Virus record (IMG/VR): IMGVR_UViG_3300026953_000016
Coordinates: 1 to 53,086 of that record
Direction: 5' to 3' (one strand)
Length of the DNA stretch: 53,086 nt
Source: a virus
Taxonomy: Duplodnaviria; Caudoviricetes
Shown: one piece after another, positions 1-46,779 of the stretch
Position numbering within the stretch: position 1 is the stretch's first letter
Layout: each line of letters begins with the position of its first letter
Position numbers and translations under genes: made by a program
The notes under the pieces: model-generated
Told to the model about the DNA's origin: nothing
Seen by the model: the letters and a program-made list of their open reading frames with translations, nothing else
The model's database searches: none

Positions 1-1275
1 TTATACCAGCTTTTCCACGCCGCGGGCGCGCTGGCGATCGGCGTCCTCGTCCGGCCAAAGGTGGCCGTAGGTGTCAAGGGTCATCTTCAGGGTCGCGTGA
101 CCGATCAGCTTCTGCAGCCGCTTTGGTGAAATGCCCTGTTCGATCTGGAGTGAGGCGTAGACGTGGCGCAATGTGTGCGGGCCGAATAGTGGAGCTTTGT
201 AATCGGCGTTGGCAGCCGCATTGTTCCGGATGTGCTCGTCCGCTAGCGTGGCGGCGACCAATCCGCAATGGTTCATCAAGGGGGTCCAGAACCATGCGCG
301 GAAGCTGGGGTAGGACCAGATTCCGCCGCTCTCATTCGGGAAGGCCATGAGGGGCGCCGAGGCATCCGTGCTTGCGATGATCTCTCCTGCCTGGGCCCGT
401 TCGTTTCCCGCTCTCCTGTCCGCGAGGGCGGCCCTGCGGCTCAGTTTCTTCGGTTGGGGCTTGGGCGCCTTCAGGAGCCACAGGCGCAAAGCCTGTGCCG
501 TCTCTGGGCCGAGATCGACCTCACGCCGGCTGGCGGCACTCTTCACTGAGCCGATGACGTTGTAGCGATCAGCGCGCTGATAAATCTCAAGCTTTGGCCG
601 ATCGCCCTTAAGATGGCAGGCCTCTCTCGGCAGCCCGCGAAGTTCGGACATGCGCAAACCGCCGAACATGAGGATCTGAACTACTGCAAGGGCGCGGCCG
701 GTGTCGTCGAACGACCTTGCGCCTTCTATGAGGGCTTTCAATTGTTCTCTGCTTGGAAGCTCAAACGATGCGTCCTTGCCGGCATCGGGACGCCGTTTGA
801 CTTTGACCTCGGTGTCGCGGATGGGATTGCTTGAGAGCCAGCCGCTGCGGGCGCCATGCTTACATATCTGCGACAAGGTGGTGCGGATTTTCGTGATGGA
901 CTTTGCGTTCACCCGGCCAATTAGGCGATTAAGGAAGAGCTGCGCCTCTGGTGTGCCGAGGGAGGAACATCGCGTATCGGCCAATTCGGCATCGCTCAGG
1001 ATGTGGTTGTTGATGTGGCTACGCAGCATATCGATGTAGCTGCGCTCGCGTTCTCCGGTGTCGACCAAGCTCTGCATGTATTCGAGATAGTCTGTTGCAA
1101 GCTGCCGGAAGGGCGCCGATGATGTTGGGCGGCTGCCTTCAACCTCTATGCGCTTGGCGTTCGCCTCGCGGGAGGTGTCGAACATTTCCGATACACGCTT
1201 ACCGCTGGCGTCGGTCCAGACTGTTTGAAAGCGGACCTTTCCGCTTGGGAGTTTGCGCTTGCGGATATAGGCCAT
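1..1275 (-). CDS. int: Tyrosine recombinase / phage integrase
   Basis: Catalytic motifs GLRMSELRGL (R), HTLRH (HxxR), LIGHA...TLDTYGH (H, Y); arm-binding-like N-terminus. Confidence 0.95.
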   Translation of the reverse strand: MAYIRKRKLPSGKVRFQTVWTDASGKRVSEMFDTSREANAKRIEVEGSRPTSSAPFRQLATDYLEYMQSLVDTGERERSYIDMLRSHINNHILSDAELADTRCSSLGTPEAQLFLNRLIGRVNAKSITKIRTTLSQICKHGARSGWLSSNPIRDTEVKVKRRPDAGKDASFELPSREQLKALIEGARSFDDTGRALAVVQILMFGGLRMSELRGLPREACHLKGDRPKLEIYQRADRYNVIGSVKSAASRREVDLGPETAQALRLWLLKAPKPQPKKLSRRAALADRRAGNERAQAGEIIASTDASAPLMAFPNESGGIWSYPSFRAWFWTPLMNHCGLVAATLADEHIRNNAAANADYKAPLFGPHTLRHVYASLQIEQGISPKRLQKLIGHATLKMTLDTYGHLWPDEDADRQRARGVEKLV

Positions 1276-1311
1276 GGTTGGGAAATCGCATCAATTCGCT
1301 TGGATCGGACT

Positions 1312-1551
1312 CTAGCTGTGATCGGGTGTCAAGGTTTTCGGGGCCTTGAGGGCGGCCACAAGCTCGGATTTGAAGGCATAAATCCCGAAACCTGAGAGTT
1401 TCCGAATGGGGAGCGCGCCCGCGGTGCGGGCGTGGTAAACCTGCCGCACCGTCCAGGAGGCACCAAGGGTCGTGAGAAACTTGGCGATTTCCTCCGGCCC
1501 TTTGACCATTTCGTCTGCGACCAGGTCGGGCGGGTTGGTATGTACATTCAT
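1312..1551 (-). CDS. Excisionase-like small DNA-binding protein
   Basis: 79 aa from ATG 1551, directly upstream of int; winged-helix-like pattern GPEEIAKFL...RQVYH...LPIRK...IYAFKSEL. Confidence 0.65.
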   Translation of the reverse strand: MNVHTNPPDLVADEMVKGPEEIAKFLTTLGASWTVRQVYHARTAGALPIRKLSGFGIYAFKSELVAALKAPKTLTPDHS

Positions 1552-1811
1552 GGCTTTTCCCCGAACAGGTTTGGGGTGTTTTCCGCGTGATAGCCTTTGT
1601 CCCAGCCGAGTTCGCGCGCCTTCCATTCGGCTAGGCGAATGGGGCGCTCTTCGCCGGCAAAGGCGCCTGCGAGCTCGCGGGTATCGTTTTCATGGAACAC
1701 CGAGCGGGGCAGCCAGATTGGCTGGCGATGGGCTCCGCGCGAGACGAGGACTGATGCAGGGCGCACCTCATGGATGCGCAACCGGACGAAGGTATATCGG
1801 CGCTGGTTCAT
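1548..1811 (-). CDS. Hypothetical phage protein
   Basis: 87 aa; overlaps both neighbours by 4 nt (translational coupling). Confidence 0.6.
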   Translation of the reverse strand: MNQRRYTFVRLRIHEVRPASVLVSRGAHRQPIWLPRSVFHENDTRELAGAFAGEERPIRLAEWKARELGWDKGYHAENTPNLFGEKP

Positions 1812-2812
1812 GGTGTCCCATAGAATGTGGTGTGTAACCGCAAACTCTTGATCAGGTTTGCGCTATCGGCCCATCGCACATGGCCGAGCCACGCAGCAGT
1901 GAATTTGCGCAACCGCTCCGCATCACCTCGATCGCGATAGGCTTTGAGTTTGCGGCGTGCGCGCGTGACGCTCGTCTTTCGTAGCAGCTTGTGAGTTCTC
2001 CAGATGCGATAACCCAGAAAGTTGATGCCGCGTGTGGCGCTGGCGATGGACCATTTTGAGAAGGTGAGGCCGAGGTGGTCTCGCGCATAGGCTTCGATCG
2101 ACTGCTTCACGCAGCGCAGATGGTCTGGGCTTTTTCCGAGCACGACGACATCATCCATATAGCGATACCAGAGGCGTTCTTTGAGAATTTGCTGGAGGTG
2201 CCGATCAAGTGTCGCGCCAAGATATAGGTTGGCGAAGATCTGCGATGTCAGGCTGCCGATCGGAAGTCCGATGCCATCGCGTGATATCATCGCCTCTATC
2301 AGTCTCAGCGTCGCGCGGCAGGAAATTTTTGCTTCGATTAGCTTCCAGAGCGTGGCGTGATTGATCGATGCGAAATAGGCGCGGAAGTCTGTCTTGAGGA
2401 AGTGGAGGGGAGCGCCGCTGCGTGATATGCGCCGCATCTCGCTCTGCAATTGCTTCACGCCGACGTGGACACCTTTGCCGGGGCGGCAGGCAAAAGCGCG
2501 CGGTAACAGAGTAGCTTCGAAAATCGGCCCAATGATGAGGCATAGTGCCTGCTGGGCGACACGGTCGCGGAAAGGAAGCGCTGAAATCAGCCGCTTTTTT
2601 GGGTCGAATACGTGGAACTGATAGGGCTCACCTGGTGTGTACAGTCCTTCGCGCATCTCATGGGCGAGATCAGCAAGGTTGAGTGGTGCATATTCTTTGA
2701 ACTCGAGATAGCCGGACGATTGCCTTTTGCCGGCACTGGTGAGCCGGTAAGCCTCGGCCAAGTTCTCCGGCGAGGTGATTTTGTCGATCAGGTTTCGAAA
2801 TCGTCGGGTCAT
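1808..2812 (-). CDS. DGR reverse transcriptase
   Basis: RT motifs PKKRLISALPFRDRVAQ, FACRPGKGVH, LKTDFRAYFASI, GLPIGSLTSQ (DGR-type SQ), YRYMDD, GINFLGY; no maturase/endonuclease domain. Core start taken as ATG 2812 (334 aa), but the frame stays open upstream through TR. Confidence 0.95.
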   Translation of the reverse strand: MTRRFRNLIDKITSPENLAEAYRLTSAGKRQSSGYLEFKEYAPLNLADLAHEMREGLYTPGEPYQFHVFDPKKRLISALPFRDRVAQQALCLIIGPIFEATLLPRAFACRPGKGVHVGVKQLQSEMRRISRSGAPLHFLKTDFRAYFASINHATLWKLIEAKISCRATLRLIEAMISRDGIGLPIGSLTSQIFANLYLGATLDRHLQQILKERLWYRYMDDVVVLGKSPDHLRCVKQSIEAYARDHLGLTFSKWSIASATRGINFLGYRIWRTHKLLRKTSVTRARRKLKAYRDRGDAERLRKFTAAWLGHVRWADSANLIKSLRLHTTFYGTP

Positions 2813-2992
2813 TTCATTACGGCCAATTGAGAGGGGTGCCGGCCGCGGGTCTCGACGGATTGCTCCGCTACGCCCCGCTATGCCGGACCTTGAAGTGTGT
2901 TCGCCGAAGCAGGACGAATGGGCTGACCACCAGCCTTGACTGGATGTGGCCGGCCGGCGAGACCGTAATCTGCACCGAGCCGAAATCTGGTC
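2813..2992 (-). ncRNA. DGR spacer RNA segment between TR and RT (putative structured priming region)
   Basis: Same position as the Sp region of the Bordetella BPP-1 DGR; hairpins GGCTG-GTGGT-CAGCC (2921-2935) and CGGA-GCAA-TCCG; inverted repeat GGTCTCG/CGAGACC (2848-2854 and 2958-2964). Confidence 0.6.
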
Positions 2993-3117
2993 GTCACTGC
3001 GGCCCCGAGCGCCCAAATTGTCGTTCGAGTTGTCGTTCCAGTTGTCGAGGTTCGCGTAGCGCGAGCCCGCGTTATTGTCGTTGAACCACGACCCGCCGAA
3101 AATGGAGGCACGCGGCT
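2993..3117 (-). repeat. DGR template repeat (TR)
   Basis: 125 bp aligning without gaps to 3582-3706 and 7900-8024; 9 AAY codons; differences from the two VRs fall almost entirely at TR adenines; divergent 3' end (IMH*) AGTGACGACCAGATT. Confidence 0.97.
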
Positions 3118-3120
3118 GCG

Positions 3121-3522
3121 TCATGTCCCCACCCGCCCTTTTCGTGGGCTTGTGACCTCCGAAACCTTGAGCTTTTGCTGCCAAGCGTTGAGCATGCGCC
3201 CGGCCTCAGCAAGCCGGGCTAACGCCACGGCATGCTGTTTTGGGGTGACAATGCGGATGCCGTCCTGACAGAGTAGACGAAGAAATGCGCGCAAAGTCGC
3301 GAATTCTGCATCCACGGCATATAGCCGGGATATCTGCCGCGACTTGGCGGCATGATAGAGGCCACCGATGGGTGCAAACAAGGCAGCCAGAACCGTGTCT
3401 CGCAGCACACCGTGGCGGCGCGGGCTGTTTTGCAGAATCGGGTAGATATAGGTCACAAAGGCCTCGTATTTCTCGACGATTGCCAAAGCGCTGACCGCTG
3501 AGGTTTCATCTTTGGCAATCAT
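3121..3522 (-). CDS. avd: DGR accessory variability determinant (Avd-like four-helix protein)
   Basis: 133 aa, basic and helical (IVEKYEAFVTYIYP...RLYAVDAEFATLRAFLRL...EAGRMLNAW); lies between target gene and TR as in canonical DGRs. Confidence 0.9.
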   Translation of the reverse strand: MIAKDETSAVSALAIVEKYEAFVTYIYPILQNSPRRHGVLRDTVLAALFAPIGGLYHAAKSRQISRLYAVDAEFATLRAFLRLLCQDGIRIVTPKQHAVALARLAEAGRMLNAWQQKLKVSEVTSPRKGRVGT

Positions 3523-3544
3523 CGAGATCTCCGAAATTTCAGAG

Positions 3545-3564
3545 GCCGCCGCTGTCGCGTCGGC
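3545..3564 (-). promoter_or_regulatory. DGR target-recognition hairpin downstream of VR1
   Basis: GCCGACGC-GACA-GCGGCGGC: 8-bp stem with one mismatch and a GRNA loop, at the target stop codon. Confidence 0.8.
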
Positions 3565-4460
3565 TAAGCAAGTTGCAGGTGGTCACTGCGGCCCCGAGCG
3601 CCCAAACTGACGAACGAGTTGTCGATCCAGTAGCCCAGGTACGCGAAGCGCGAGCCCGCGACACCGCCGCTGAACCACGACCCGCCGAAAATGGAGGCAC
3701 GCGGCTCATCCGGATCGCCGTCATGACCCCAAACCCACAGATTGCCGGTCGCCTGCATCACGCCGAAGCGGCTGGTGCGCGGCGCATCAATGCCAGTGGT
3801 TTCGGGATCGCGCGAGGCGGCTGTCTTTTCGGTCACTCCGAAAGATGCGGCAAAGAACTCATAGACGCTGAGCAGTCCTTTTCCATGCGCTGCCATTACT
3901 GCTTTGGCTGTCGCGTAGTCGAAGCTTGCTGTTTTTTTGCCTTCTGCATTGATTGGCAAGTCTTCTCCATCAGCAATAGTCACACCAAACTTGCTGGTGC
4001 CATTGCTGAGGTGATGTGTGCCGGTCAGATAAATGTCGCACCAGAAGCGAGTGCCGTTGGCTTCAACCAGAACCATTCCCCGCGGATCAGGGCACGCCGG
4101 GCGGAAGCCGACATCCCAAAGCGAGCAGGGGTTGATCGCTGGAATGTCATCGCCCCCACTTCTGGCCGTCGCATTTCCGCCAGTAGCATAGTGAAACCCA
4201 CCCAGCAGGGTCTCGCCTTCCGGGATGCCAACCGGTCGTGAAACCGACATAGCGGTCCCGTCGAAGTGGACTGCGTAGTCTGCGCCGGGGATATAGCCAG
4301 GCACTCCGGTGGCATCGAGATGGCGGGGGACTGGCGTGTCCTCAACGAATGTATAATCGCCAAAAATAGTTCCAGCTCTGATGACAAGGCTATCACGACC
4401 TGTAACATTGAAGATCGGGGAGTTCGTGTCAGGCCTAATCAGCTTTGGGTGTGTGCTCAT
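3564..4460 (-). CDS. DGR target protein 1, Mtd-like with C-terminal C-type-lectin-fold variable domain
   Basis: 298 aa with GGAGA RBS; motifs GGFHYA, SLWDVGFRP..DPRGM, FWCDIY, GTSKFGVTIADG, QATGNLWVWG, FGGSW...GARGRSDHL match what I recall of BPP-1 Mtd; VR1 at the 3' end. Confidence 0.92.
   Translation of the reverse strand: MSTHPKLIRPDTNSPIFNVTGRDSLVIRAGTIFGDYTFVEDTPVPRHLDATGVPGYIPGADYAVHFDGTAMSVSRPVGIPEGETLLGGFHYATGGNATARSGGDDIPAINPCSLWDVGFRPACPDPRGMVLVEANGTRFWCDIYLTGTHHLSNGTSKFGVTIADGEDLPINAEGKKTASFDYATAKAVMAAHGKGLLSVYEFFAASFGVTEKTAASRDPETTGIDAPRTSRFGVMQATGNLWVWGHDGDPDEPRASIFGGSWFSGGVAGSRFAYLGYWIDNSFVSLGARGRSDHLQLA
3582..3706 (-). repeat. DGR variable repeat VR1
   Basis: Manual alignment to TR: 15 differences at TR adenines plus one synonymous C>G (3636); followed by IMH CACCTGCAA. 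Confidence 0.97.
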
Positions 4461-4475
4461 ATCGGTCTCCGATGG

Positions 4476-5024
4476 CTAGCCGCCAAGCAAATCTTCTTTG
4501 GCGGTGATGGGGTTGACGGGAATTTTGTTCAGAGATGGCGCCAGCTCATATTCGAGCGCGATGGCTATATCGGTAGGTACATTGAAGAAGCCGAGCGCCC
4601 CCTTGAATGGGATGAAGTGGATGGGGCGAACATCTCTAAGTTCCAAGCCGACGGGCCCGAAAAACCACGGTGATGCGCTGCTGCTGGTCAATCCGCTAAG
4701 TCGGGCGATGCCCAGAAATCCGCCACGGCGCAACTGGTCAAATGCTGGTAGGGGAATGCGGGTAGGCTTAGCGCATTTATTTGGCCTGGAATTCGTCAGG
4801 ACAGCTTGGCCGATCTCAGTGTTGCGGTAGAAATCCGCAAATTCGCGATATTCCGCAACTGTCATTCCTGCTGCTGCATGAATGAGAAAGGATTGGCGCG
4901 TTATGGCTAAATCGACGGCATCACGATATCCCTGGTACCGTGGGGACCAATCGCGGTTTTCAACATCCTTACCGGCATAAAGGATGGCCCAGGCCCAAGG
5001 TTGGCGGATCGATAGTGCTTTCAT
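4476..5024 (-). CDS. ASCH-domain protein
   Basis: MKALSIRQPWAWAILYAGKDVENRDW ... LIHAA ... GGFLG ... PWFFGP ... KGALGFF. Confidence 0.85.
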   Translation of the reverse strand: MKALSIRQPWAWAILYAGKDVENRDWSPRYQGYRDAVDLAITRQSFLIHAAAGMTVAEYREFADFYRNTEIGQAVLTNSRPNKCAKPTRIPLPAFDQLRRGGFLGIARLSGLTSSSASPWFFGPVGLELRDVRPIHFIPFKGALGFFNVPTDIAIALEYELAPSLNKIPVNPITAKEDLLGG

Positions 5025-5034
5025 GATGTCCACC

Positions 5035-6150
5035 TCACACTTTCATGGGCATGATGACGTGGATGGCGTTGTTGTCTTCGGTGTCGATCACGCGAATGGG
5101 CGATTGCGGATCCATGGTCAGGATTTTGACGGACCGACTTCCAATCGCGCTCAACGTATCGCGCAAATAGTTGGCGTCGGCACCGAAGGTGATCTCCCGG
5201 CCATCTATCTCGGCGTTGACATCTTTGGTTGCCACTTCACCGGTATCGGTGACGGCTGACAGCATGATGCTGCTTTTGGTGCAATCGATCCTGACCACGG
5301 TCGTTTTGCCGCTGAGCACGACTGACACGAGATTGATGGCCTTCAGGGCGGCCTCAGTCATAACGGTAGCGGTGTGCGTGTACTTTGCCACATCCGGGAT
5401 GATGCATTCATATTCCGGAAAATCGCCGTCGATCAGCTTGGATGTCAGTATCGTGCGCCCGACAGAGGCCGAGATGCGGTTTGTGCATGCGGATATTTCC
5501 ACCGCCGCCTTGAGATCATCCGTGATCCGATACATCTCCGTGACCATCTTTTCGGGCACGATGATGCCCGGCAGGTTTTCTGCGCCGGCCGGAAGGGGAG
5601 ATGAATAGATGGCGGCGCGATAGCTATCGCATGCTGCGGCGCGCAGCGTGCCGGAGTAGTGCTTATGGAGATATAGCCCGCAAAGATAATAGCGCGTGGT
5701 TTCGCTGGAGATCGCGAACCGCGTCTTCGCGATCATGCGGAGCAGGTCTTCGGATGAAATATTGAATTTTGCCGTAAAGGCATCACCGCCAAGCTTGGGG
5801 AAATCCGCGGCTGGCAGAGTTGCCAACTCAAACCTGGCGGAGCCGCAATGCAGTTTAATGCGGTTGCCGTTGTTGGCGTCCTCGAAGCCGATCTCCGAGC
5901 CGGAGGGAAGTTCGCGCACAATGTCATATAGCGTTTGCGCGGGAACGGTGATCGCGCCGAAGTCATCAATCTGCGCGTCTATCCGTTCCGACATTTCCAT
6001 GTCGCAATCCGTGGCGCAGATTTTGAGCTCAGTTCCATCCGCAGTCAGAAGCACGTTGTTGATGACGGGTATGGTGTTGCGGCGGGGAACGACACCCAGC
6101 ACATGCTTCATAGCCCGCGTGAGAGCGGATTGATCGATGATGAATTTCAT
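5035..6150 (-). CDS. dnaN: DNA polymerase III beta subunit (sliding clamp), phage-encoded
   Basis: 371 aa; RRNTIPVINNVLL, ATDCDM, FAISSETTRYYLCG, SKLIDGDFPEY, C-terminal VIMPMKV. Confidence 0.93.
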   Translation of the reverse strand: MKFIIDQSALTRAMKHVLGVVPRRNTIPVINNVLLTADGTELKICATDCDMEMSERIDAQIDDFGAITVPAQTLYDIVRELPSGSEIGFEDANNGNRIKLHCGSARFELATLPAADFPKLGGDAFTAKFNISSEDLLRMIAKTRFAISSETTRYYLCGLYLHKHYSGTLRAAACDSYRAAIYSSPLPAGAENLPGIIVPEKMVTEMYRITDDLKAAVEISACTNRISASVGRTILTSKLIDGDFPEYECIIPDVAKYTHTATVMTEAALKAINLVSVVLSGKTTVVRIDCTKSSIMLSAVTDTGEVATKDVNAEIDGREITFGADANYLRDTLSAIGSRSVKILTMDPQSPIRVIDTEDNNAIHVIMPMKV

Positions 6151-6485
6151 GAGGCAGAGTCCTCGGTAGCGCGACACTTGGGTGCGGCCGCGTAGGCTTT
6201 GCAGACGTCGTGGATTGAGCGACGGCTAGCTTCGCGCTCGATGAGCACAAGAGCTTCTTCGAATTGACCTGCGCGGATGAGGGGGGGCAGTGCTTCAAGG
6301 GTGTCGCCGTCATCGGTGCGGTAGCGCGTGAGCGCTTGAACCTCATGAAGCGCATTGTCTGCCATGCGGTTCCGCAGATAAGTAGCAAGCATGCCGCTTG
6401 CGCCGTTGCAGCCGGTCAAATACCCGAAGCTGGTACCGCTTCGAGCAAGTGCGCCAGCGGAACGCTTGGCCCCTGTGTCGGTCAT
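6147..6485 (-). CDS. Hypothetical protein
   Basis: 112 aa, ATGA-coupled to both neighbours; GGAGG RBS. Confidence 0.6.
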   Translation of the reverse strand: MTDTGAKRSAGALARSGTSFGYLTGCNGASGMLATYLRNRMADNALHEVQALTRYRTDDGDTLEALPPLIRAGQFEEALVLIEREASRRSIHDVCKAYAAAPKCRATEDSAS

Positions 6486-6799
6486 ATGCTGACCTCCTGC
6501 ACCGATGGTTTGACCTGGCCATTATGGCTTTGCGGTGTCGGTCCGGTTTGTTGCGCCAGGCATGGCGCATGCAGAAGCTCGGCGTTCGTGACGCAAGTGT
6601 TGTCTTCGCAGACAGTAACGTGTTGCAGGCATTCGCCGAGCCACGTTTTGGTTTTGAGGCATGCGCAAAGCGCTTCCTGACCAAAACGAACATCGGTGTC
6701 ATGCTTGGCCTGCGTGGCTTTCTCGTCACCGCATCCAGCAAGCATCGCTGTGATAGCAACCAATGCCGAGATCAGAACTATGTTGTGGTATTTGGTCAT
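6482..6799 (-). CDS. Putative small Cys-rich lipoprotein
   Basis: Hydrophobic signal followed by lipobox LAG|C; coupled to the dnaA-like stop codon. Confidence 0.55.
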   Translation of the reverse strand: MTKYHNIVLISALVAITAMLAGCGDEKATQAKHDTDVRFGQEALCACLKTKTWLGECLQHVTVCEDNTCVTNAELLHAPCLAQQTGPTPQSHNGQVKPSVQEVSI

Positions 6800-7833
6800 G
6801 GTCTGAGCTCCATTTTGAAGTATCCAGATGCGGCATATTTCGCGGTGATGGTATTGCGCAGGAGCTCGACTTCGCCCTTAAACATCACGTCGTCGCGCAT
6901 CAGCTGTTCTACCCGGCGGCAGGCATGCAAGACGGTAGTGTGATCACGCCCGCCAAAACGGCGTCCGATTTCTGGCAATGAGCGCGTGGTTAGCTGGCGT
7001 GACAGATACATGGCCACCTGGCGCGGGCGGGCGATTTGACGGCAGCGCGAAGGTGATATGAAATCACTCTGGGTCAAATTGTAGAGATTGCTGGTCGAGA
7101 CCATGATGGTATCGATGGTTGGGCGCGGCACCGCTCGGGGAGCACCGATGATGTGTTTCGCGAGTGTTTCAGGAGTGACCGCGTGGACGCTGCTTTGCGC
7201 ATATAATGCTGCCATCGTCACCAGACCAATAATGGCTCTGGGCGTCATAGGCTGGCTCGCGATGGCGGCGATCACCTCATTATTCAGTGTCACGTTCCAT
7301 TTTTCGGTAGCATGTCTGGCGTGCGCTTGAGCAAGCATCAGCCGCCGCTCGTGGTTCCATGGCTCCAGGTCGATGCGATAGCCATCTTGTAGAGATTTCA
7401 GGACTGATGCGGTGATCTTGTCGCGCAGCTTTTCCGGCGCACAATCGGCGGTAACGAGCAGGGGCTTTTTTTCGGCTGTGAATAGCCGCAGCGCGATATT
7501 CAATTCTGTCGCGCGGTTCGCAGCCAACGGAAGGTCATCGATCAAGAGGGCGTCAGCGCCGCTGAGTTCAGCAAAGAAGGCCGACAATGTGCCGCTGCGG
7601 CTGGCTTCGCAGATTCGCCGCATGAATTCCGGTGCCGAAAAATGGCGTGCGTTGAGCCGGTAATTTTGACAGGCGCGGGCGGCGACATTCAAAAGCGTGG
7701 TTTTTCCAAGGCCGGGGGCACCCTGGATATAGATCGTGTCAACACCCTTCGACGGACCTAGCAGCGTTTCGCGGACCACATCGATATCGGCCTGAAGGCG
7801 ATGCGAGGTATTCAGTTCAAACCAATCGGTCAT
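6796..7833 (-). CDS. dnaA: DnaA-like protein (AAA+ domain III plus DNA-binding domain IV; domains I-II absent)
   Basis: Walker A GAPGLGKT, Walker B LLIDD, DnaA signature RPRQVAMYL...SLPEIGRRFGGRDHTTVLHA; start ATG 7833 with GGAGAG RBS (345 aa). Confidence 0.88.
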   Translation of the reverse strand: MTDWFELNTSHRLQADIDVVRETLLGPSKGVDTIYIQGAPGLGKTTLLNVAARACQNYRLNARHFSAPEFMRRICEASRSGTLSAFFAELSGADALLIDDLPLAANRATELNIALRLFTAEKKPLLVTADCAPEKLRDKITASVLKSLQDGYRIDLEPWNHERRLMLAQAHARHATEKWNVTLNNEVIAAIASQPMTPRAIIGLVTMAALYAQSSVHAVTPETLAKHIIGAPRAVPRPTIDTIMVSTSNLYNLTQSDFISPSRCRQIARPRQVAMYLSRQLTTRSLPEIGRRFGGRDHTTVLHACRRVEQLMRDDVMFKGEVELLRNTITAKYAASGYFKMELRP

Positions 7834-7862
7834 AAGGCATCTCTCCATTTGGCTCGATCGAG

Positions 7863-7882
7863 GCCACCGCTGCCGCGGCGGC
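7863..7882 (-). promoter_or_regulatory. DGR target-recognition hairpin downstream of VR2
   Basis: GCCGCCGC-GGCA-GCGGTGGC, at the same position relative to the stop codon as the VR1 hairpin. Confidence 0.8.
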
Positions 7883-8778
7883 TAAACAGGTTGCAGGTGG
7901 TCACTGCGGCCCCGAGCGCCCAAAAGGCCGACCGAGCTGTCGTTCCAGCTGCCGAGGTCCGCGCAGCGCGAGCCCGCGTTATCGTCGTTGAACCACGACC
8001 CGCCGAAAACGGAGGCACGCGGCTCGTCGGGATCTCCGTCGTGGCCCCAGTCCCACAGATTGCCGGTCATCTGCATCCCGCCAGATCGGCTGGTGCGCGG
8101 CGCATCGAGGCCCGTCTTCACCGGATCGCGCGGCGCGGCACTTTTCTCTGTCACGCCGTAAGCGGCGGCACGGAACTCGTCGTAGCTGAGAAGGGTCTTG
8201 CCGTGTGCGGCCAGCGCCGCTACCGCCGTGGCATAATCGAAGCGCGCAACCTTTTTGCCGTCGGCGCCGATCGGCAGGTCCGTGCCGTCCGCAATCGTCA
8301 CGCCATATATGCTGCTGCCGCTTTTGAGATGATCGACGCCGAGCTTGTAGATGTCGTACCAGAAGCGCTTTCCGTTCACCTCGCACAGGGCCATGCCGCG
8401 CGGATCGGGGCAGGCAGGGCGGAAGCCAATATCCCACAGTGAGCAGGGATTGATCGCCGGAATATCATTCCCACCACTTTGCGCTATCGCATTGCCGCCT
8501 GGCGCGAAATGGAAGCCGCCAAGCAGCGTATCACCTTCCGGGATTCCGGCTGATCGTGAGACCGATAGAGCCGCTCCGTCGAAGAAGACGGCGTAGTCTG
8601 CACCCGGCATATAGCCGGGCTCTCCGGCAGCATTGAGATGGAGCGGGACCGGCGTGTCCTCGGCAAACGTGTGGCCGCCAAAGACCGTTCCTGCCATGAT
8701 GACAAGGCTTTCACAGCCGGTGGGCTTGAAAATGGGTGCGTTTAAGTCCGGTCTGATCAATTTTGTAGGTATGCTCAT
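7882..8778 (-). CDS. DGR target protein 2, Mtd-like paralog of target 1
   Basis: 298 aa from ATG 8778 (GGAGA RBS, ATGA overlap with upstream gene); collinear with target 1 along its length; VR2 at the 3' end. Confidence 0.92.
   Translation of the reverse strand: MSIPTKLIRPDLNAPIFKPTGCESLVIMAGTVFGGHTFAEDTPVPLHLNAAGEPGYMPGADYAVFFDGAALSVSRSAGIPEGDTLLGGFHFAPGGNAIAQSGGNDIPAINPCSLWDIGFRPACPDPRGMALCEVNGKRFWYDIYKLGVDHLKSGSSIYGVTIADGTDLPIGADGKKVARFDYATAVAALAAHGKTLLSYDEFRAAAYGVTEKSAAPRDPVKTGLDAPRTSRSGGMQMTGNLWDWGHDGDPDEPRASVFGGSWFNDDNAGSRCADLGSWNDSSVGLLGARGRSDHLQPV
7900..8024 (-). repeat. DGR variable repeat VR2 (remote target)
   Basis: Manual alignment to TR: 12 differences, all at TR adenines; same IMH start (CACCTGCAA) as VR1. 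Confidence 0.97.
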
Positions 8779-9395
8779 ACGCAATCTCCAATGGTTGGCT
8801 GCCGCATTTTGACAGCAGATGTCTGGATGGGAGCATTACGCTCCTTCCGCTGTGCGCGATCGAGGCGTCCGATGGCTGCGATGATGCAGGCAGCGCTGCT
8901 GATCAGTTCGTCGCGCTGGTTGGTGGGGGTAATGGCAGTGACCTCGCCATGCATGGTTAGGTAGAGCAGGGTAGGTTGGCCGCATATGTCGCCAGGCAGC
9001 ATGCGATAGCGATGTTCCGCGCTTTGTTCGCCGCCAAGAATGGCGTAAGCGGCAGCAAGACGAGGCAGATACCAATCCGGCGCTTCGTCATCCTTGACGA
9101 TGCTGTAACCACGGGTTTCAATCTGGTGTCGGCGCTTTGCGGCGATTTCCTCGACAATGTATTCGAATTCGGGAACCTGGCGCCGCCGGCGTCGCCATTC
9201 GTTGAAGCGGCGCAGCCCGTAAGAACGCACCACGCTGATCACCGACATAAAGGCGACGAACACGGCAAAACCGGACCAGGCGCGAACATCGACACTATGG
9301 ATGCCGAACCAGCTTGCGATGGCATTGATGGCGAATCCGATGCCAAGGTTCTGCATGGATTCGGCAAGTGAGGCGCGGCGCGATTGGGCGATCAT
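8775..9395 (-). CDS. Phage protein: N-terminal two-TM segment fused to a conserved helical phage domain
   Basis: QSRRASLAES...SYGLRRF membrane module plus IAAKRRHQI...LAAAYA...AACIIAAIGRLDR, a pattern common in phage early genes. Confidence 0.65.
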   Translation of the reverse strand: MIAQSRRASLAESMQNLGIGFAINAIASWFGIHSVDVRAWSGFAVFVAFMSVISVVRSYGLRRFNEWRRRRRQVPEFEYIVEEIAAKRRHQIETRGYSIVKDDEAPDWYLPRLAAAYAILGGEQSAEHRYRMLPGDICGQPTLLYLTMHGEVTAITPTNQRDELISSAACIIAAIGRLDRAQRKERNAPIQTSAVKMRQPTIGDCV

Positions 9396-9400
9396 ACCAA

Positions 9401-9682
9401 TTACTCCGAAATACCAGCGTTCGTTAACTCCTGGAGAAGCGTGGCGCGCTGATCAGTTAAGTCGACTCGAAGAAGGGCTCGAACTTTCTTGGCCGTTTCA
9501 GCTGTCGGTAATGGGTCGATGTCGTCGTTAAGAAGGTGGTATCCGAACAGTCGTGACCGCCGTTCGCCGAGCGCGGTGATCGCTGGTGCCGCATCAAGTT
9601 CGTCCAGCTTTGCCAGGATTGAGCTCATGCGCTCAATCAATCGTGCTTTGGCGGCGTATTGGGATACTTGGAAAAGCTTCAT
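9401..9682 (-). CDS. Hypothetical protein
   Basis: 93 aa in the tightly packed leftward operon. Confidence 0.55.
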   Translation of the reverse strand: MKLFQVSQYAAKARLIERMSSILAKLDELDAAPAITALGERRSRLFGYHLLNDDIDPLPTAETAKKVRALLRVDLTDQRATLLQELTNAGISE

Positions 9683-9939
9683 GACACTTTCCCCTGAGCA
9701 GCACGTGGTGTGCGATAGATGCGGCTGACTTTGTTGGCGTCGGCAGAAACGACAGTGCCACCGATCGTGCGTACGCTGAGGCTTTCCACAGCGAGGGTAT
9801 TGCCGCGGGCGGAAATCGTGCGACCCTGGATGTAGCCCTCGCGGCCATCGGATAGGCGGGCGGGGTCACCGATACGCCAGGCGCAATCTTGCAGTCCGGC
9901 GACTTGGAGTACCGAAGCGCGGGTGAGCAATGCAGTCAT
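9679..9939 (-). CDS. Hypothetical protein
   Basis: 86 aa; overlaps its neighbours. Confidence 0.5.
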   Translation of the reverse strand: MTALLTRASVLQVAGLQDCAWRIGDPARLSDGREGYIQGRTISARGNTLAVESLSVRTIGGTVVSADANKVSRIYRTPRAAQGKVS

Positions 9940-10091
9940 CAGTGAATCTCCATCGTGATGCCGGCGTGGATTTGCGATGTGGCGTTGACGGCAAGAGTGA
10001 TGAACAGTGCGGATTCGCCGGCCATCACGATCAAGAGCGCGATCCAGATTGCGGCAGGATGTTCGGCAAAGAAGGCTTTGAACGGTTTCAT
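9939..10091 (-). CDS. Small membrane protein
   Basis: 50 aa from ATG 10091; one hydrophobic stretch; coupled to neighbours. Confidence 0.45.
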   Translation of the reverse strand: MKPFKAFFAEHPAAIWIALLIVMAGESALFITLAVNATSQIHAGITMEIH

Positions 10092-10222
10092 CGCAGCAAC
10101 ATCCAAAGCGTAAAAGCGAACGTGCCGATGCCGGACCAAGCGGTCAGTGCGAGCAGGAAGATGAAGGGCACCCGATGATTGGGGTGGCGCTGCAGATCCT
10201 CCAAAAGATCAAATTTTCGCAT
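10088..10222 (-). CDS. Small membrane protein
   Basis: 44 aa from ATG 10222 with strong GAGGAGG RBS; hydrophobic C-terminal half. Confidence 0.5.
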   Translation of the reverse strand: MRKFDLLEDLQRHPNHRVPFIFLLALTAWSGIGTFAFTLWMLLR

Positions 10223-10235
10223 AACGACTTCCTCC

Positions 10236-10772
10236 TCACCGCGCATTGCGTGCCGCGATGGCGTAGGCATTGAGGTCTGAGACGAACTTGTCCGCGGCAC
10301 GATCCCAATTGAGCGGGCGAATTACGCTTTGCAGTGACCTTATGCCTTTGGCATGCGCGCGGGCGATGTGATCGGCGGGGCCTATGTCAAATTGGGAGCG
10401 CTCGGATAATTCCGCGCGCTCGTGCATGGCGGCGAACATGGCCATATGATCGTCGCCTGGGAGCGGGTTGAAGTCATGAAGGCCGAAGTTCGCCAGCATC
10501 TCGGCGCGCTGCTGGTAGCGGGTGTAGCCGCTCAACTCGCCGTCAAGTGCATCTTCGGCATGGTGAAGCAGGGCATATAGCGCTGCGCGAGGTCCTTGAT
10601 TGAAGCCGCAGACTTTCAGCATCTCGGCCGCCACGACGCAGCAATGCTGGGCCAAAGAATAAAAGCATTCGCCTGTGAGCCCTGGGTAAACGGCTCGCTG
10701 CGCCAGCCGCAGAGCAACCGCTTTGGCTGTCAGTGGGGCCGGATTTGGGGAAAGGCGAGCAGTAGCTGGCAT
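10236..10772 (-). CDS. HD-domain (YfbR-like deoxynucleotidase family) protein with a degenerate motif
   Basis: FYSLAQHC...ALYALLHHAEDA compared with the family pattern YSVAQHS...ALLHDAxEAY; first gene after PL. Confidence 0.65.
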   Translation of the reverse strand: MPATARLSPNPAPLTAKAVALRLAQRAVYPGLTGECFYSLAQHCCVVAAEMLKVCGFNQGPRAALYALLHHAEDALDGELSGYTRYQQRAEMLANFGLHDFNPLPGDDHMAMFAAMHERAELSERSQFDIGPADHIARAHAKGIRSLQSVIRPLNWDRAADKFVSDLNAYAIAARNAR

Positions 10773-10800
10773 GGCGCGGCCCAAAAGATGACGGGGCGCA

Positions 10801-10854
10801 CCGTAGGCTCAGAATTATGAGCCTGTCAACACTGTCGCGCTCAGAATTATACGC
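10801..10854 (-). promoter_or_regulatory. Leftward early promoter PL with operators OL1 (10805-10824) and OL2 (10839-10854)
   Basis: Minus strand reads GTTGAC-AGGCTCATAATTCTGAGC-CTACGG; second site GCTCAGAATTATACGC; both match the palindrome at 12285-12304. Confidence 0.8.
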
Positions 10855-10945
10855 GGCCGGTAGGCAAGTGGTTGGCGAGAGGTTAACAGGCCTAAACCCT
10901 GTGGTGATTTTATGCTAGGGCAATTGCGGCAAGTTGGCGGGTATC

Positions 10946-11554
10946 ATGAGCGAATCGGGATCGGCAGCGCGGGCGTTTCAATCCGGTTTTTTTGGCTGCT
11001 TCGGGGTATTGGTCGCGATGGTGGTGATCGTGGTGGTGATGATTGCGCCGTGGTCACGATCAAGCACGCCATCACAACTTGCCTCCGCGGTGCCACAGGC
11101 ACCCGTCGCGCGAGAATGGGTGGAGCGGCGGGATGTTTCGAAGCTCAACGACAGCCCGCAATATTTCGCCTGGATAAAGCCTGAAGGTGAACACAAGGAT
11201 AGCTATGGCAGCGAGATCGACCCATCGTTGATCATCCGTTGTATGGATCGGCATGTTGAGGTTGAAATCGATGCCGGACGATATATCGGAGGCATCGGCG
11301 AAGGTACTCTGGTCACGGTTCGTTTTGATGGCGGCAAGGCCACGCGCGAGCGTTGGTCACCTTCAGACGATCAAAAAGGAACCTTTTCGCCAAATGCGAA
11401 GCGGTTTCTGAAGCAGCTCGCCGGCGCAGACCGCGTTATCATCCGGCTGCAACCGGAATACCTGGCGGGTGATACTTTCGAATTTCGGGTCAAGCACCCT
11501 GCCGATCGAGTGCGGGAGGTCGCGAAGGCGTGCCGCTGGAATGCAGGTCTATAG
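10946..11554 (+). CDS. Membrane-anchored exported protein, VasI/TagO-like fold; candidate superinfection-exclusion gene
   Basis: N-terminal TM segment; W..SKLNDS...PSLIIRC...VTVRFD...WSPSDD..GTF...FLKQL pattern; lies in the immunity region, convergent with cI. Confidence 0.55.
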   Translation: MSESGSAARAFQSGFFGCFGVLVAMVVIVVVMIAPWSRSSTPSQLASAVPQAPVAREWVERRDVSKLNDSPQYFAWIKPEGEHKDSYGSEIDPSLIIRCMDRHVEVEIDAGRYIGGIGEGTLVTVRFDGGKATRERWSPSDDQKGTFSPNAKRFLKQLAGADRVIIRLQPEYLAGDTFEFRVKHPADRVREVAKACRWNAGL

Positions 11555-12211
11555 GCGTCCGAAGCGCCAAAGAACGGGCCCGATAATATGGGCATCCGCT
11601 GCATCCACTTCATAAGGTGGAAAGACGTTGCTATTATCTGAAATGATGCGGAAGCGAGGGCGGCCACCGACGATGCTCTCAATCCGCTTCACCACAACGC
11701 CGATCCCATCCCACAACACATAGATCAGTCCGGGCTGGAACTCACGGGCATCGCTCATCAGGCGGATAATGCCAATGTCTCCGTCTTGGATCGTCGGAAG
11801 CATGGAGTCGCCCCGGAATTGAACGCAGCGCAATCGCGGCTGATCCGATCCGATCACCTGACTGATGATATCGCGCCGGACATAAAAAGGCGGCGCTTCC
11901 GGTTCCTCGACAATGGTAAAGCCGTTTCCAGCGCCAGCGCGGACCTCCAGACTCTTGATGCCGATGACATGTTTCATAGGGGACTCGGCCACGGGAATAG
12001 GTTCGCCTGTGAGTTCGGACACGTTCGCGTCTGCCGCAGCTGCAAGTTTCTGGAGCGTAGAATAGGTCAATGATGCCGTCGCACCATTCAGGAAATTATG
12101 AATAGTTCCTTCGGCAATGCGGGCTCGCTTCGCCCAAGGTTTGATCTTCAAACCGCGGCTTTCCATGAACTGCCTAAAAACTTGTCTGTTGTGGCCGCCA
12201 GGGTCGCTCAT
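11549..12211 (-). CDS. cI: CI-like repressor (XRE HTH plus S24 peptidase)
   Basis: HTH IKPWAKRARIAEGTIHNFLNG; cleavage region VRAGAG; GDSMLP (Ser) and VVKR (Lys); start ATG 12211. Confidence 0.9.
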   Translation of the reverse strand: MSDPGGHNRQVFRQFMESRGLKIKPWAKRARIAEGTIHNFLNGATASLTYSTLQKLAAAADANVSELTGEPIPVAESPMKHVIGIKSLEVRAGAGNGFTIVEEPEAPPFYVRRDIISQVIGSDQPRLRCVQFRGDSMLPTIQDGDIGIIRLMSDAREFQPGLIYVLWDGIGVVVKRIESIVGGRPRFRIISDNSNVFPPYEVDAADAHIIGPVLWRFGRL

Positions 12212-12246
12212 GGCGCGAACAATGGCGGGCCGAGTACAAACGACTA

Positions 12247-12308
12247 GCCCGGAATTATGAGCATCCCTTGTTCTCGCGGTTGACAGGCTCATAATTATGA
12301 GCCTATCA
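12247..12308 (+). promoter_or_regulatory. Rightward promoter PR with operators OR1 (12285-12304) and OR2 (12247-12262)
   Basis: TTGACA at 12280-12285; perfect 20-bp palindrome AGGCTCATAATTATGAGCCT; CTATCA -10-like element; degenerate copy GCCCGGAATTATGAGC. Confidence 0.82.
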
Positions 12309-12315
12309 CTTGCGC

Positions 12316-12525
12316 ATGAGCACTGCGCCGTTCGCCGAACAATCCTTGGGCCTGGTCCGTCAAGCTGTTGAAGCCACGAGCAAAAAGCATGTGGCGGCAA
12401 TCGCTGGGATATCGGACGCCATTCTCGCCCGGCTCGATGACCCCGATTTCAGCCCGCATTTGCGGACCCTGAGGAAGCTGGAAGCCGCTGCGCGGCAGGT
12501 ACTTGGTCAAAAAGAGGACGCATGA
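12316..12525 (+). CDS. Cro-like HTH protein
   Basis: 69 aa divergent from cI; SKKHVAAIAGISDAIL...FSPHLRTLRKLE. Confidence 0.75.
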   Translation: MSTAPFAEQSLGLVRQAVEATSKKHVAAIAGISDAILARLDDPDFSPHLRTLRKLEAAARQVLGQKEDA

Positions 12526-13064
12526 CCATGAACTCCAAAAAGCGTCCACAGTCTGGCATGCCTGCGAAGTTCCCGCTGCCACAACGTCGCGGCGGCTTTA
12601 AAGCAATCAAACCCCGCGCCCACGGCTCTGCTGAGGACGTGATCCGCCGCGCGGTGGACGAGGCTGGCGGTGCCGCCGTGGTGGCGCAGTTCTTCGAAGT
12701 CGATGAACAGATGCCATATCGCTGGTCGGACCCGACGCGGCGCGAGCAGCTGTCGGTCGGCCGCGCGTTGCGCATGACGCATTTCTTGAATGCAACGGCG
12801 TTCGCCGAAGCTTTCGCGGCAGCGGCTGGCGGCCTCTATGTGCCGGTTTGTGCTGAGAGCAATACGGGTTCGCTGCTTTCGTTGGGTGTTGAGTCCAATC
12901 AAGAGCTTGCCGATCTCATCATGCGGATCACGAAGGCGCTTGATGATGGCAAGGTCACCCAGAAAGAGCGCGACGGACTTTTGTTGGCTCTCGACGTGCT
13001 GCTGCGCACGCTTTGCGCAATGCGCGCCAATCTCACGGTTTCCGATGAAGGCGGTGCGCTGTGA
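12522..13064 (+). CDS. Phage CII-like regulatory protein
   Basis: Follows cro; N-terminal HTH and C-terminal ALDDGKVTQKE motif typical of the CII family. Confidence 0.7.
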   Translation: MTMNSKKRPQSGMPAKFPLPQRRGGFKAIKPRAHGSAEDVIRRAVDEAGGAAVVAQFFEVDEQMPYRWSDPTRREQLSVGRALRMTHFLNATAFAEAFAAAAGGLYVPVCAESNTGSLLSLGVESNQELADLIMRITKALDDGKVTQKERDGLLLALDVLLRTLCAMRANLTVSDEGGAL

Positions 13065-13260
13065 ACCGCCCTCGTTCCGATGCAGGTAGCCCCCAAGCCT
13101 GCATCTGCGCCGCCGGCTCTCCCCCTCTGCGTCCGGCGGCGCACTCCAATTGCTGCCGTAACGGGTGGTCATCCATGCGCGGCGGTTTCCGCGCGTTTTC
13201 CCCCATCCCCACGACTGGGGCCGCGTCGATCGGTGTGGCCCATTTTTCTGCAGGTGCGTG

Positions 13261-13455
13261 ATGGCGCTGCGTGTTTCCAGGATCGCCAGCTTTGAACGCC
13301 GCTTCGCCGCGGTCGCCTTCGCCCAAGCCGAACGGCAGAGCAAACGCGCGCCGCATTCTCTCATCGCCAGCCTAGAGCTCCAGCTGGCCGCGCTTAAGGG
13401 TGCAAGCGACCTCGTAGCTGCACGCATTGCGCGGCTGAAAGGTGGTGCAGCATGA
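13261..13455 (+). CDS. Hypothetical protein
   Basis: 64 aa, ATGA-coupled to the next gene. Confidence 0.45.
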   Translation: MALRVSRIASFERRFAAVAFAQAERQSKRAPHSLIASLELQLAALKGASDLVAARIARLKGGAA

Positions 13456-13796
13456 AGCGCAGCAAAAAGCGCATGTCGGCCCGATCGGAATTGGCGTTGG
13501 CTCTGGCGTTGGCGGCACGCGACATCGCCTATGCCGCTGGCCGCGCGAAGGCGCGCTCCGATGCTGAGTGCATTCCGAAATCGTTGCCGGAGAAATACCA
13601 AAAGGGGTGGGGCCTGATGGCCGCGCATGGCCGCGCCATCATGAAAATCTTGCCGAACTTGCCCGCTGAACAATGGCCGGAAACAGCCTCCGTTCTTTGC
13701 GAGTGCGCAGATGCCATCCAAGGCGGCACGACGCTGGTCTCGGATGTCTCGATCCATGACCGTCGCGGCTATCCCAATGAGAAGAGGCGCGCATGA
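13452..13796 (+). CDS. Hypothetical protein
   Basis: 114 aa, coupled at both ends. Confidence 0.55.
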   Translation: MKRSKKRMSARSELALALALAARDIAYAAGRAKARSDAECIPKSLPEKYQKGWGLMAAHGRAIMKILPNLPAEQWPETASVLCECADAIQGGTTLVSDVSIHDRRGYPNEKRRA

Positions 13797-14452
13797 AGGC
13801 GGAATTCGACCGGCGCGATCCCGTTTCGCAGACGAGCCTCAACTTTCACCGTTCGCCCGATGAGGCAATCCCAACCTTATTGTCGATCGACGAACCGGTT
13901 CTGCGGCGCTTCTCCCTGATCGCAGAGCTGTCGTGTGGAGACGGCGCATTGGTCACGCCCTTGCGGGCGCGAGGGTTTCGCGTCGTTGCTGCCGATCTCG
14001 TCGATCGTGGCTGCCCTGGTTCCCATGTGCGGGACTTCCTGGCAGAGGACACGAAGCACTACGTCGCTTCGCTGGGGCGGGCGGCGTGCGTTATGAACCC
14101 GCCTTTCAACGCGGTGGAACCGTTCTTGCTGCGCGCGTGCGAGCTTTTCGACTATGTCGCCTTCATTCTGCGGCTTCGCTATCTCGGGCCGCAGCACTTC
14201 GTCGACGACACCGGCACCAAAGACCTGAAGGGGCCGCCGATATGGACGCTGACGCGGATTCCTCTTGCACGGCTCATCATGCCAGCAAGCCGATGGCCAA
14301 TGATGCACCGCGATGGCTATGAGGGCCCGAAAGTCAAAAGCGGCATGACGGACAGCTGCTGGTTCGTCTTCGAAAAAAATCATCGCGGCGCGCCGCAAAT
14401 TCACCGTGAACCTGATGCCGAAATTCTGCAGAGGACGTTCGGCGATGCTTAG
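13793..14452 (+). CDS. Putative amino (N6A/N4C) DNA methyltransferase
   Basis: SAM-binding-like ELSCGDGAL, then DFL, catalytic NPPF and C-terminal CWFVF. Confidence 0.75.
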   Translation: MKAEFDRRDPVSQTSLNFHRSPDEAIPTLLSIDEPVLRRFSLIAELSCGDGALVTPLRARGFRVVAADLVDRGCPGSHVRDFLAEDTKHYVASLGRAACVMNPPFNAVEPFLLRACELFDYVAFILRLRYLGPQHFVDDTGTKDLKGPPIWTLTRIPLARLIMPASRWPMMHRDGYEGPKVKSGMTDSCWFVFEKNHRGAPQIHREPDAEILQRTFGDA

Positions 14453-14648
14453 CGTGGTGTATTGGGCCAATTACCGCTTGGTGCGCCAACGCGCGCGCCC
14501 CATGTCGCGCGAGGAGCGCAATCGCTTCTTCGCAGCCAGCCGCATGGGCCCAATCCTTTACGCCATTTCTTGCGCGGCGTCCTTCGCGCAGCCGTTACCA
14601 AACAATGACCCGAAGGAGGTCAAGGATGCCTGTCTATCCCACGTCTGA
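14445..14648 (+). CDS. Hypothetical protein
   Basis: 67 aa filling the gap in the operon. Confidence 0.35.
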   Translation: MLSVVYWANYRLVRQRARPMSREERNRFFAASRMGPILYAISCAASFAQPLPNNDPKEVKDACLSHV

Positions 14649-46777: not shown

Positions 46778-46779
46778 GA

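Follow-up and report, generated by a model that had tools for sequence, protein, structure and literature searches.

The provirus record IMGVR_UViG_3300026953_000016 of IMG/VR (Duplodnaviria; Caudoviricetes; completeness estimate 100%), whose full length of 53,086 nucleotides (nt) is referred to here as the window, carries on its minus strand a diversity-generating retroelement (DGR) with two target genes, the products of which are homologues of Mtd, the DGR target of phage BPP-1. The window ends in a tyrosine integrase gene (1–1275, minus) and an O-antigen acetyltransferase-like gene (51995–53086, plus); it is a complete prophage, of siphovirus type because no tail sheath was found in it. An earlier note on this DNA had proposed that the targets lack the N-terminal domain of Mtd, are encoded in the early, repressor-controlled arm of the phage and may act inside the cell instead of determining virion tropism.

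The DGR and its target proteins

The elements of the DGR, all on the minus strand, are the following (aa, amino acids; RT, reverse transcriptase; TR, template repeat; VR, variable repeat):

1808–2812, minus: DGR RT, 334 aa (RVT_1, E 9.1e-19; generic RT model, E 3.4e-42)
3000–3117, minus: TR, 118 nt, with 25 adenines and 9 AAC/AAT codons in the VR frame
3121–3522, minus: bAvd, accessory variability determinant (PF22296, E 3e-26)
3545–3564, minus: GC-rich hairpin (found by eye) beginning at the target 1 stop codon; its stem of 8 positions includes one A-G mismatch and its loop is 4 nt long
3564–4460, minus: target 1, anchor-less Mtd homologue of 298 aa, beta-sandwich and C-type lectin head
3589–3706, minus: VR1, codons 252–291 of target 1; of its 16 differences from the TR, 15 fall on TR adenines
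7863–7882, minus: GC-rich hairpin (found by eye) beginning at the target 2 stop codon; its stem of 8 bp includes one G-T pair and its loop is 4 nt long
7882–8778, minus: target 2, a 298-aa paralogue with 73% identity to target 1
7907–8024, minus: VR2, codons 252–291 of target 2; all 12 of its differences from the TR fall on TR adenines

With its RT, bAvd, one TR and two VRs, this is a canonical and recently active DGR. Although just 25 of the 118 bases in the TR are adenines, 27 of the 28 TR/VR mismatches fall on them, and the conserved 3' end of the repeats occurs in exactly three copies in the window, namely TR, VR1 and VR2 (expected 0.00). The identity between VR and TR ends directly after GCAGTGAC, each VR lying near the 3' end of its target (codons 252–291 of 298). 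Transcription on the minus strand runs through target 1, bAvd, TR and RT in that order, and TR sits 188 nt upstream of the most likely RT start, the ATG at 2812 as read from the sequence. The initiation of mutagenic homing (IMH) sequence and the hairpin behind each VR would be working DGR elements.

Much of this organization is shared with the DGR of BPP-1 (mtd-avd-TR-brt), including the target-avd-TR-RT order, the adenine-specific TR/VR differences, the position of the VR in the last ~40 codons of the C-type lectin head, the GC hairpin behind it and 38% identity over Mtd residues 57–380. The two systems differ in their setting: BPP-1 mtd has the N-terminal domain Mtd_N, comes after the tail-fibre gene bbp9 and closes the late operon, whereas the window has two targets without Mtd_N, 3.4 kb apart, in an early-left operon whose other members include the integrase gene (int) and those of DnaN- and DnaA-like proteins.

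Upstream of its ATG the RT reading frame continues without a stop across the spacer and the TR as far as position 3184, in the VR frame (2812–3184, minus). The RT proper measures ~334 aa, but 45 of the 54 non-redundant RT open reading frames (ORFs) of related loci reach 420 aa or more, and 38 of those 45 long ORFs have target-like motifs in their first 140 residues, far above chance frame agreement. The open frame through the TR may mean either that the RT has a TR-encoded extension or that stops are avoided across the TR RNA.

Two targets of 298 aa on the minus strand, as the earlier note had it, were found at 3564–4460 and 7882–8778, with 215 of 296 residues identical. Their only Pfam match is to mtd_2nd, from residue 18 or 19 (27.0 and 27.2 bits against a cut-off of 24.6). 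Absence of the N-terminal domain had been claimed with an alignment to BPP-1 Mtd as the proposed check; in BLASTP, residue 7 of the target corresponds to Mtd residue 57, and 38% identity extends from there to the C-terminus, while phmmer against the Mtd structures in PDB (1YU0–1YU4) gave E 2e-46, the 1YU0 alignment spanning residues 57–380. Since the alignments begin at Mtd residue 57, the first ~50 residues of Mtd are missing from the targets. A six-frame search for Mtd_N (PF18454) found it in none of 23 phage records, comprising the window and 22 related ones; the search works, since it recovered BPP-1 mtd, the positive control, at 63.9 bits, as well as two ORFs of the Synechococcus phage S-CBS3. 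The claim that the targets lack a signal peptide agrees with a Kyte-Doolittle scan, a crude test and no signal-peptide predictor, in which neither showed a hydrophobic segment (best 19-residue mean 1.0–1.1, against 3.05 in a control membrane ORF). At the level of sequence comparison both targets consist of the Mtd beta-sandwich and C-type lectin head, with neither Mtd_N nor another recognisable anchor.

When 36 members of the family are aligned, no conservation is seen in the first ~15 residues, whereas 65 columns of the scaffold are invariant. An AlphaFold2 monomer model is good only at residues ~10–90, the lectin head being poor (mean predicted local distance difference test score, pLDDT, 59), and a predicted complex of three copies of target 1 scored 0.30 against a mark of 0.42, which speaks neither for nor against a trimer.

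The early-left operon and the late genes

The genes and sites that surround the DGR, together with the tail-fibre genes of the late region, are listed below (HTH, helix-turn-helix; PL and PR, leftward and rightward early promoters):

1–1275, minus: tyrosine integrase, last gene of the leftward chain (Phage_integrase, E 7.9e-12)
1329–1811, minus: two small ORFs of 72 and 87 aa between RT and int, without Pfam match, overlapping or abutting their neighbours
4476–5033, minus: phrog_3193 protein (PHROG family)
5035–6177, minus: DnaN-like sliding clamp with three DNA_pol3_beta domains
6147–6799, minus: two small overlapping ORFs of 112 and 105 aa, no family
6796–7848, minus: DnaA-like AAA+ protein with DnaA C-terminal HTH (Bac_DnaA_C, E 1.1e-27; Bac_DnaA, E 6.1e-11)
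8775–9395, minus: DUF7220 protein, its stop overlapping the start of target 2
9401–10784, minus: the four genes that open the chain, of which three are small ORFs and one encodes a nucleotidase-like protein of 182 aa
10800–10829, minus: PL-like promoter, TTGACA at 10829–10824, 18-bp palindromic operator at 10823–10806, TACGGT at 10805–10800
11549–12211, minus: cI-like repressor, HTH and S24 peptidase, probable start ATG at 12211
12247–12309, plus: PR-like promoter and operators between cI and cro, TTGACA at 12280–12285, perfect 18-bp palindrome at 12286–12303, TATCAC
12310–13064, plus: cro-like 71-aa ORF, then a CII (CP76) family regulator (12522–13064; PF06892, E 5.8e-10), opening the rightward early operon
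43853–48948, plus: two non-variable tail-fibre-family genes, 43853–46777 and 46780–48948 (phrog_5616, E 5.6e-120; the second with a DUF2793 N-terminal domain, E 6.6e-15)

From position 10784 to int the intergenic gaps of the leftward chain measure −31 to +96 nt, with the sole exception of 308 nt containing the TR. The tightly coupled minus-strand chain running toward xis and int that the earlier note described is thus present as far as its coupling and its end at int are concerned, while the ORFs it called xis have no family match. The chain begins behind a TTGACA promoter whose spacer holds an 18-bp palindrome, and the same palindrome lies between cI and the 71-aa ORF that is termed cro-like by its position only. 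At no more than three mismatches the palindrome occurs in just two places in the 53 kb (expected 0.03; none of 100 shuffles gave two); an additional operator half-site lies at 10839–10850 and a weaker site at 12247, in the PR-like region. Because the palindrome is common to the chain promoter and the cI-cro gap, the assignment of the targets to an early, repressor-controlled PL arm gains support from the sequence, and the layout as read supports a divergent pair of early promoters under repressor control.

Between the two targets, at 5035–7848 on the minus strand, lie the DnaN-like clamp gene and the gene of the DnaA-like AAA+/HTH protein. A 206-aa membrane protein (10934–11554, plus) stands alone on the plus strand between the PL-like operator and cI; it has a hydrophobic segment at residues 19–37 and a weak match, below cut-off, to VasI of the type VI secretion system, and may be expressed in the lysogen. 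A 416-aa ORF on the minus strand (12507–13757), without family match, is probably spurious because the plus-strand ORFs that overlap it, among them the cro-like ORF and the CII-family gene, show the codon-position GC typical of coding sequence.

The late genes occupy the plus strand from ~24.5 to 49 kb and include terS (24572), terL, the portal, protease and major capsid protein genes, the tape measure protein gene (39814), Dit and the two tail-fibre-family genes, so that the late operon, as had been noted, runs on the other strand from the targets and far from them, the distance being over 20 kb. The same note had credited the phage with a non-variable tailspike of its own: separate tail-fibre-family genes without a VR do exist, while the label tailspike is unconfirmed, the genes being assigned only by PHROG tail-fibre families and DUF2793, and neither protein having a match in PDB by sequence search. 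The absence of a VR from 43853–48948, also claimed, follows from the restriction of the conserved 3' end to TR, VR1 and VR2, and a protein search likewise found no VR in the tail genes. In the neck/tail region a 492-aa protein (35486–36964, plus) has an SWM (flagellar-system-associated) repeat as well as matches to immunoglobulin-like PHROGs and may be a decoration protein or an adhesin. A megablast search of positions 1–50000 of the window against a phage collection found no match.

Related loci and anchored relatives

A word-seeded protein search returned 828 relatives of the targets at E<=0.001 among 1806 candidates; the best 120 are mostly about 290–330 aa long, and the named ones among them come from Bradyrhizobium, Rhizomicrobium, Rhodopseudomonas and Xanthobacteraceae. 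Among 72,556 plasmid records no member of the family was matched. Neighbourhoods were compared in 87 related prophage or phage loci of Rhizobiales, 21 from species genomes and 66 from IMG/VR, duplicates included. Isolates with a related locus include Mesorhizobium sp. B2-3-4 (L009), Shinella pollutisoli KCTC 52677 (L011), Rhizobium sp. BK602 (L012) and Rhizobium sp. CG5 (L014). Two or three targets are present in 43 of these 87 loci, mostly in tandem ahead of avd-TR-RT, and adenine-biased mismatches (at least three at adenines, making up at least 80% of all, by a crude alignment) were seen in 53 of 79 related targets.

The earlier note had proposed a survey of the gene neighbourhoods of homologues, and the neighbours found are replication, methylase, repressor and integrase genes, with tail genes not among them. 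When 58 window proteins were searched by tblastn within 10 kb of the DGR, homologues of DnaN were found at 18 of the 87 loci, of the phrog_3193 protein at 12, of two methylases at 10 and 6 and of cI at 3; two small ORFs (3 each), a ParB-like protein (2) and the DUF7220 protein (1) were rarer, and homologues of the window structural genes were found at none (0/87). The proximity of DnaN to the DGR may reflect only a shared operon position, or possibly more. Independent ORF calls, by a crude caller (longest ORF, weighted by GC at the third codon position) that yields spurious opposite-strand ORFs and left 9 of 73 non-redundant loci without a clustered target ORF, gave recurrent same-strand clusters downstream, namely DUF5131 and four integrase clusters, and recurrent upstream clusters comprising SSB, ASCH, S24 repressor, CII-like, GapR-like, MT-A70, DUF2303, DUF6551, YfbR-like and Toprim primase proteins, as identified by scanning representatives. 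Among the 35 non-redundant loci having at least 7 kb of downstream sequence, at least 18 have a same-strand integrase downstream, a lower bound because singleton integrases, such as that of the window, were left uncounted.

Large neighbours were compared separately, with 96 representatives of 214 ORFs of at least 300 aa set against the structural-block proteins of six complete relatives and the window. Four of the 96 matched, one of them the terminase of locus L004 that is taken up below. At locus L049 the match is a tail-fibre gene (by PHROGs) converging on the DGR arm beyond int, and another match is a primase (by PHROGs). A 412-aa ORF at the start of the G018 block was read as non-structural, a member of its cluster (L066) having an HTH_36 match that is weak and below the Pfam cut-off.

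The same targets are found with different virions. The terL of the window matched 7 of 22 larger related viral records, at 21–28% identity, and a tail sheath is present in 6 of 23 records (5 above the cut-off); the targets of those records are 48–70% identical to target 1, that of the sheath-bearing record G003 being 62% identical. The target family is thus common to sheath-bearing and sheath-less phages with unrelated terminases, and the cassette is independent of tail type. Coordinates compared by hand in 13 records with a landmark, either terL or sheath, put it and the DGR on opposite strands in 10, and the window has the same arrangement.

Anchored proteins with the same head do exist. A search among longer proteins gave 48 matches, 47 of them at 27–45% identity; the sole long form above 45% (62%) is joined to a ParB-like nuclease domain. 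Extra Pfam domains among the longer relatives are DUF2793 (five proteins), phage tail collar (two), the T7 tail-fibre N-terminus (one) and collagen (one). In the DUF2793-Mtd protein of Jiella the head begins at residue 238, aligned to target residue 9, and its DUF2793 is homologous to residues 130–194 of the 722-aa tail protein of the window (E 2e-05). Longer Mtd-like proteins also lie within structural modules, as in Marinomonas phage P12026 (gp20, 494 aa) and S-CBS3 (Mtd, 386 aa). Such proteins share the beta-sandwich and lectin head with the targets of the window at 31–45% identity and differ in their N-terminal extensions (DUF2793, collar, T7-tail or unnamed), whereas the targets of the window have no extension and lie in an early operon. 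By sequence the anchored, more distant proteins form a group separate from the family of the window; where the head is used on a tail, it is both fused to an anchor and placed with tail genes, and the family of the window does neither.

In S-CBS3 (L090) Mtd_N starts two other ORFs, at 9833–9946 and 18187–18294, one of them annotated as a tail fibre protein, and the same search found no Mtd_N in the annotated mtd gene of that phage; Mtd_N looks like a portable N-terminal module for fibre anchoring. Long forms of 434–467 aa were considered as anchored targets and set aside: they have differing upstream parts, one of them ProQ-like, and are read as run-together upstream ORFs because, at the protein level, an internal Met stands at the start of the short family. 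One such form, P0026 (434 aa), has a ProQ/FinO domain ahead of an anchor-less Mtd head, with an internal Met suggestive of run-together ORFs; P0121 (594 aa) has a ParB-like nuclease domain in the corresponding position, again ahead of an anchor-less head.

Where the targets may act

The points that fit a role away from the tail are the lack of an anchor, the lack of a conserved adaptor neighbour, the placement in early operons and the independence of tail type. In this DGR the TR transcript is copied by RT and Avd, the errors falling specifically at adenines, and the mutated copy replaces the last 40 codons (252–291 of 298) in both paralogous target genes. These genes would be transcribed together with replication and nucleotide-metabolism genes from the repressor-controlled PL-type promoter. 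Because the chain appears to be driven by such a promoter, the targets would be made early after induction or infection. They would then be free soluble binders, probably trimers like Mtd, inside the infected or induced cell and off the tail tip, and each phage lineage would carry its own variants against a variable intracellular ligand, either a host defence or takeover target or a protein of a rival phage. That the targets act as free early intracellular binders is the interpretation we tentatively prefer, with a confidence that falls a little short of even. The broader proposal, that a widespread clade of Rhizobiales temperate phages may use its DGR, in place of retargeting the tail, for an antibody-like repertoire of free intracellular binders neutralising proteins of host defence or of rival phages, is held more loosely still. 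The interpretation offered in the earlier note is partly supported, with respect to anchor loss, the operator-bearing early-left operon, the separate tail fibres and a layout recurring across tail types.

Several points weigh against this interpretation. To our knowledge, all DGR targets of phages that have been characterised are receptor binders, and the targets of the window are homologous to Mtd over its entire receptor-binding head. The family is found only in phage and prophage contexts, which fits a role in the virion as well as one in the life cycle, and early synthesis is compatible with later assembly into particles. The promoters and operators are read from sequence only; a scan of positions 1–15000 for sigma-70 promoters and terminators found sites in numbers not above those of shuffled sequence, with none on the strand that carries the chain, and is uninformative, having also missed both TTGACA promoters. 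The layout has exceptions: in 3 of the 13 records (G003, G006 and G008) the DGR lies on the strand of the landmark, an oppositely oriented block with a serine integrase separating the DGR and landmark blocks in G003, and at L004 a terL (a terminase by PHROGs) shares the strand of the DGR, ~7 kb downstream of it. Finally, the single-site affinity of Mtd is micromolar and productive binding takes ~12 trimers per virion (PMC2408619); such a need for multivalent display fits a virion better than a free trimer, which would have little avidity.

The chief alternative is that the targets are receptor binders of the virion after all, heads made early that would attach without a covalent link to a fibre or baseplate protein, or by way of an adaptor, and would change host tropism as in BPP-1. 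This is a substantial possibility, though a doubtful one. The 38% identity to Mtd across beta-sandwich and lectin head, the confinement of the family to phages and prophages and the multivalent display that Mtd is described as needing (PMC2408619) speak for it, and the DUF2793-Mtd fusions show that the head can ride a fibre type also present in the window. In the circular genome, moreover, the late operon and the chain run toward each other and end at the attachment site (att), and the tail-fibre gene of L049 converges on the DGR arm beyond int. Docking is opposed by the lack of both an anchor domain and a conserved N-terminal peptide, and no conserved candidate adaptor was found among the neighbours within 10 kb. 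The targets never lie within a tail module (0/87 loci), the same family serves sheath-bearing and sheath-less phages with unrelated terminases, and two or three paralogues are present per phage in 43 of the 87 loci (duplicates included), all of which fit docking poorly.

Service to the lysogen, in which a hypervariable cytoplasmic binder would recognise proteins of superinfecting phages as a prophage-encoded exclusion system, is unlikely. Conversion and exclusion genes are often located beside int, which the genes of the window adjoin, and DGR-diversified intracellular lectin-fold sensors have been described in multicellular bacteria (PMC10907252). The target genes, however, lie inside the operator-controlled chain and no promoter of their own was detected, so they should be silent in the lysogen; they have no fused effector domain either, and in a PADLOC scan of ten proteins the RT alone gave a match, with generic RT and DRT models, the targets and eight of the nine neighbours scanned having none. 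Least probable, and to our minds very unlikely, is that the targets are free lectins released by lysis to coat receptors on debris or neighbouring cells, or a passenger cassette without current function, a role for which we know of no precedent: the lack of a signal peptide (by the crude hydropathy scan), such that release would need lysis, and the movement of the cassette between phage backbones agree with it, but the scaffold is strongly conserved (65 invariant columns among 36 members) and adenine-specific diversification is ongoing across the clade.

If free early binding is the correct interpretation, a close parallel would be the cellular DGR lectin-fold sensors, such as cyanobacterial regulators and STAND-type conflict systems, which would share the same principle (PMC7517822 and PMC10907252); those are large multidomain proteins with signalling or effector domains, whereas the target of the window is a bare phage-encoded head of 298 aa. 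In previous surveys of DGRs, Mtd homology was counted as evidence of a DGR-diversified tail protein (Wu et al., PMC5758913), and viral targets were classed mostly as tail structural by means of predictors (Roux et al., PMC8144416). A search of the literature gave no account of Mtd targets that lack an anchor and are encoded in early operons, and the accessible text of the tentaclin paper (PMC10743442) and of a review on DGRs and immunity (PMC10053308) contained no mention of such a family, although the supplementary target tables of PMC5758913 and PMC8144416 may list it.

Phage DGRs are commonly taken to diversify the receptor binders of tails, and here is a large Mtd-like clade without an anchor and in early operons. 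The window contributes to this clade a case with two targets set apart from each other and an operator that speaks for the early promoter, together with a comparison of phages with and without a sheath and the anchored relatives that bear DUF2793. Should the targets instead dock on virions, they would exemplify a new mode of receptor-binder mounting that needs no anchor. Should they act off the virion, a phage DGR would for the first time have a target that is no part of the particle, amounting to a second phage use of targeted hypermutation, in the form of an intracellular binder in conflicts between phage and host or between phages, and the head would provide a compact natural scaffold for cytoplasmic binders.

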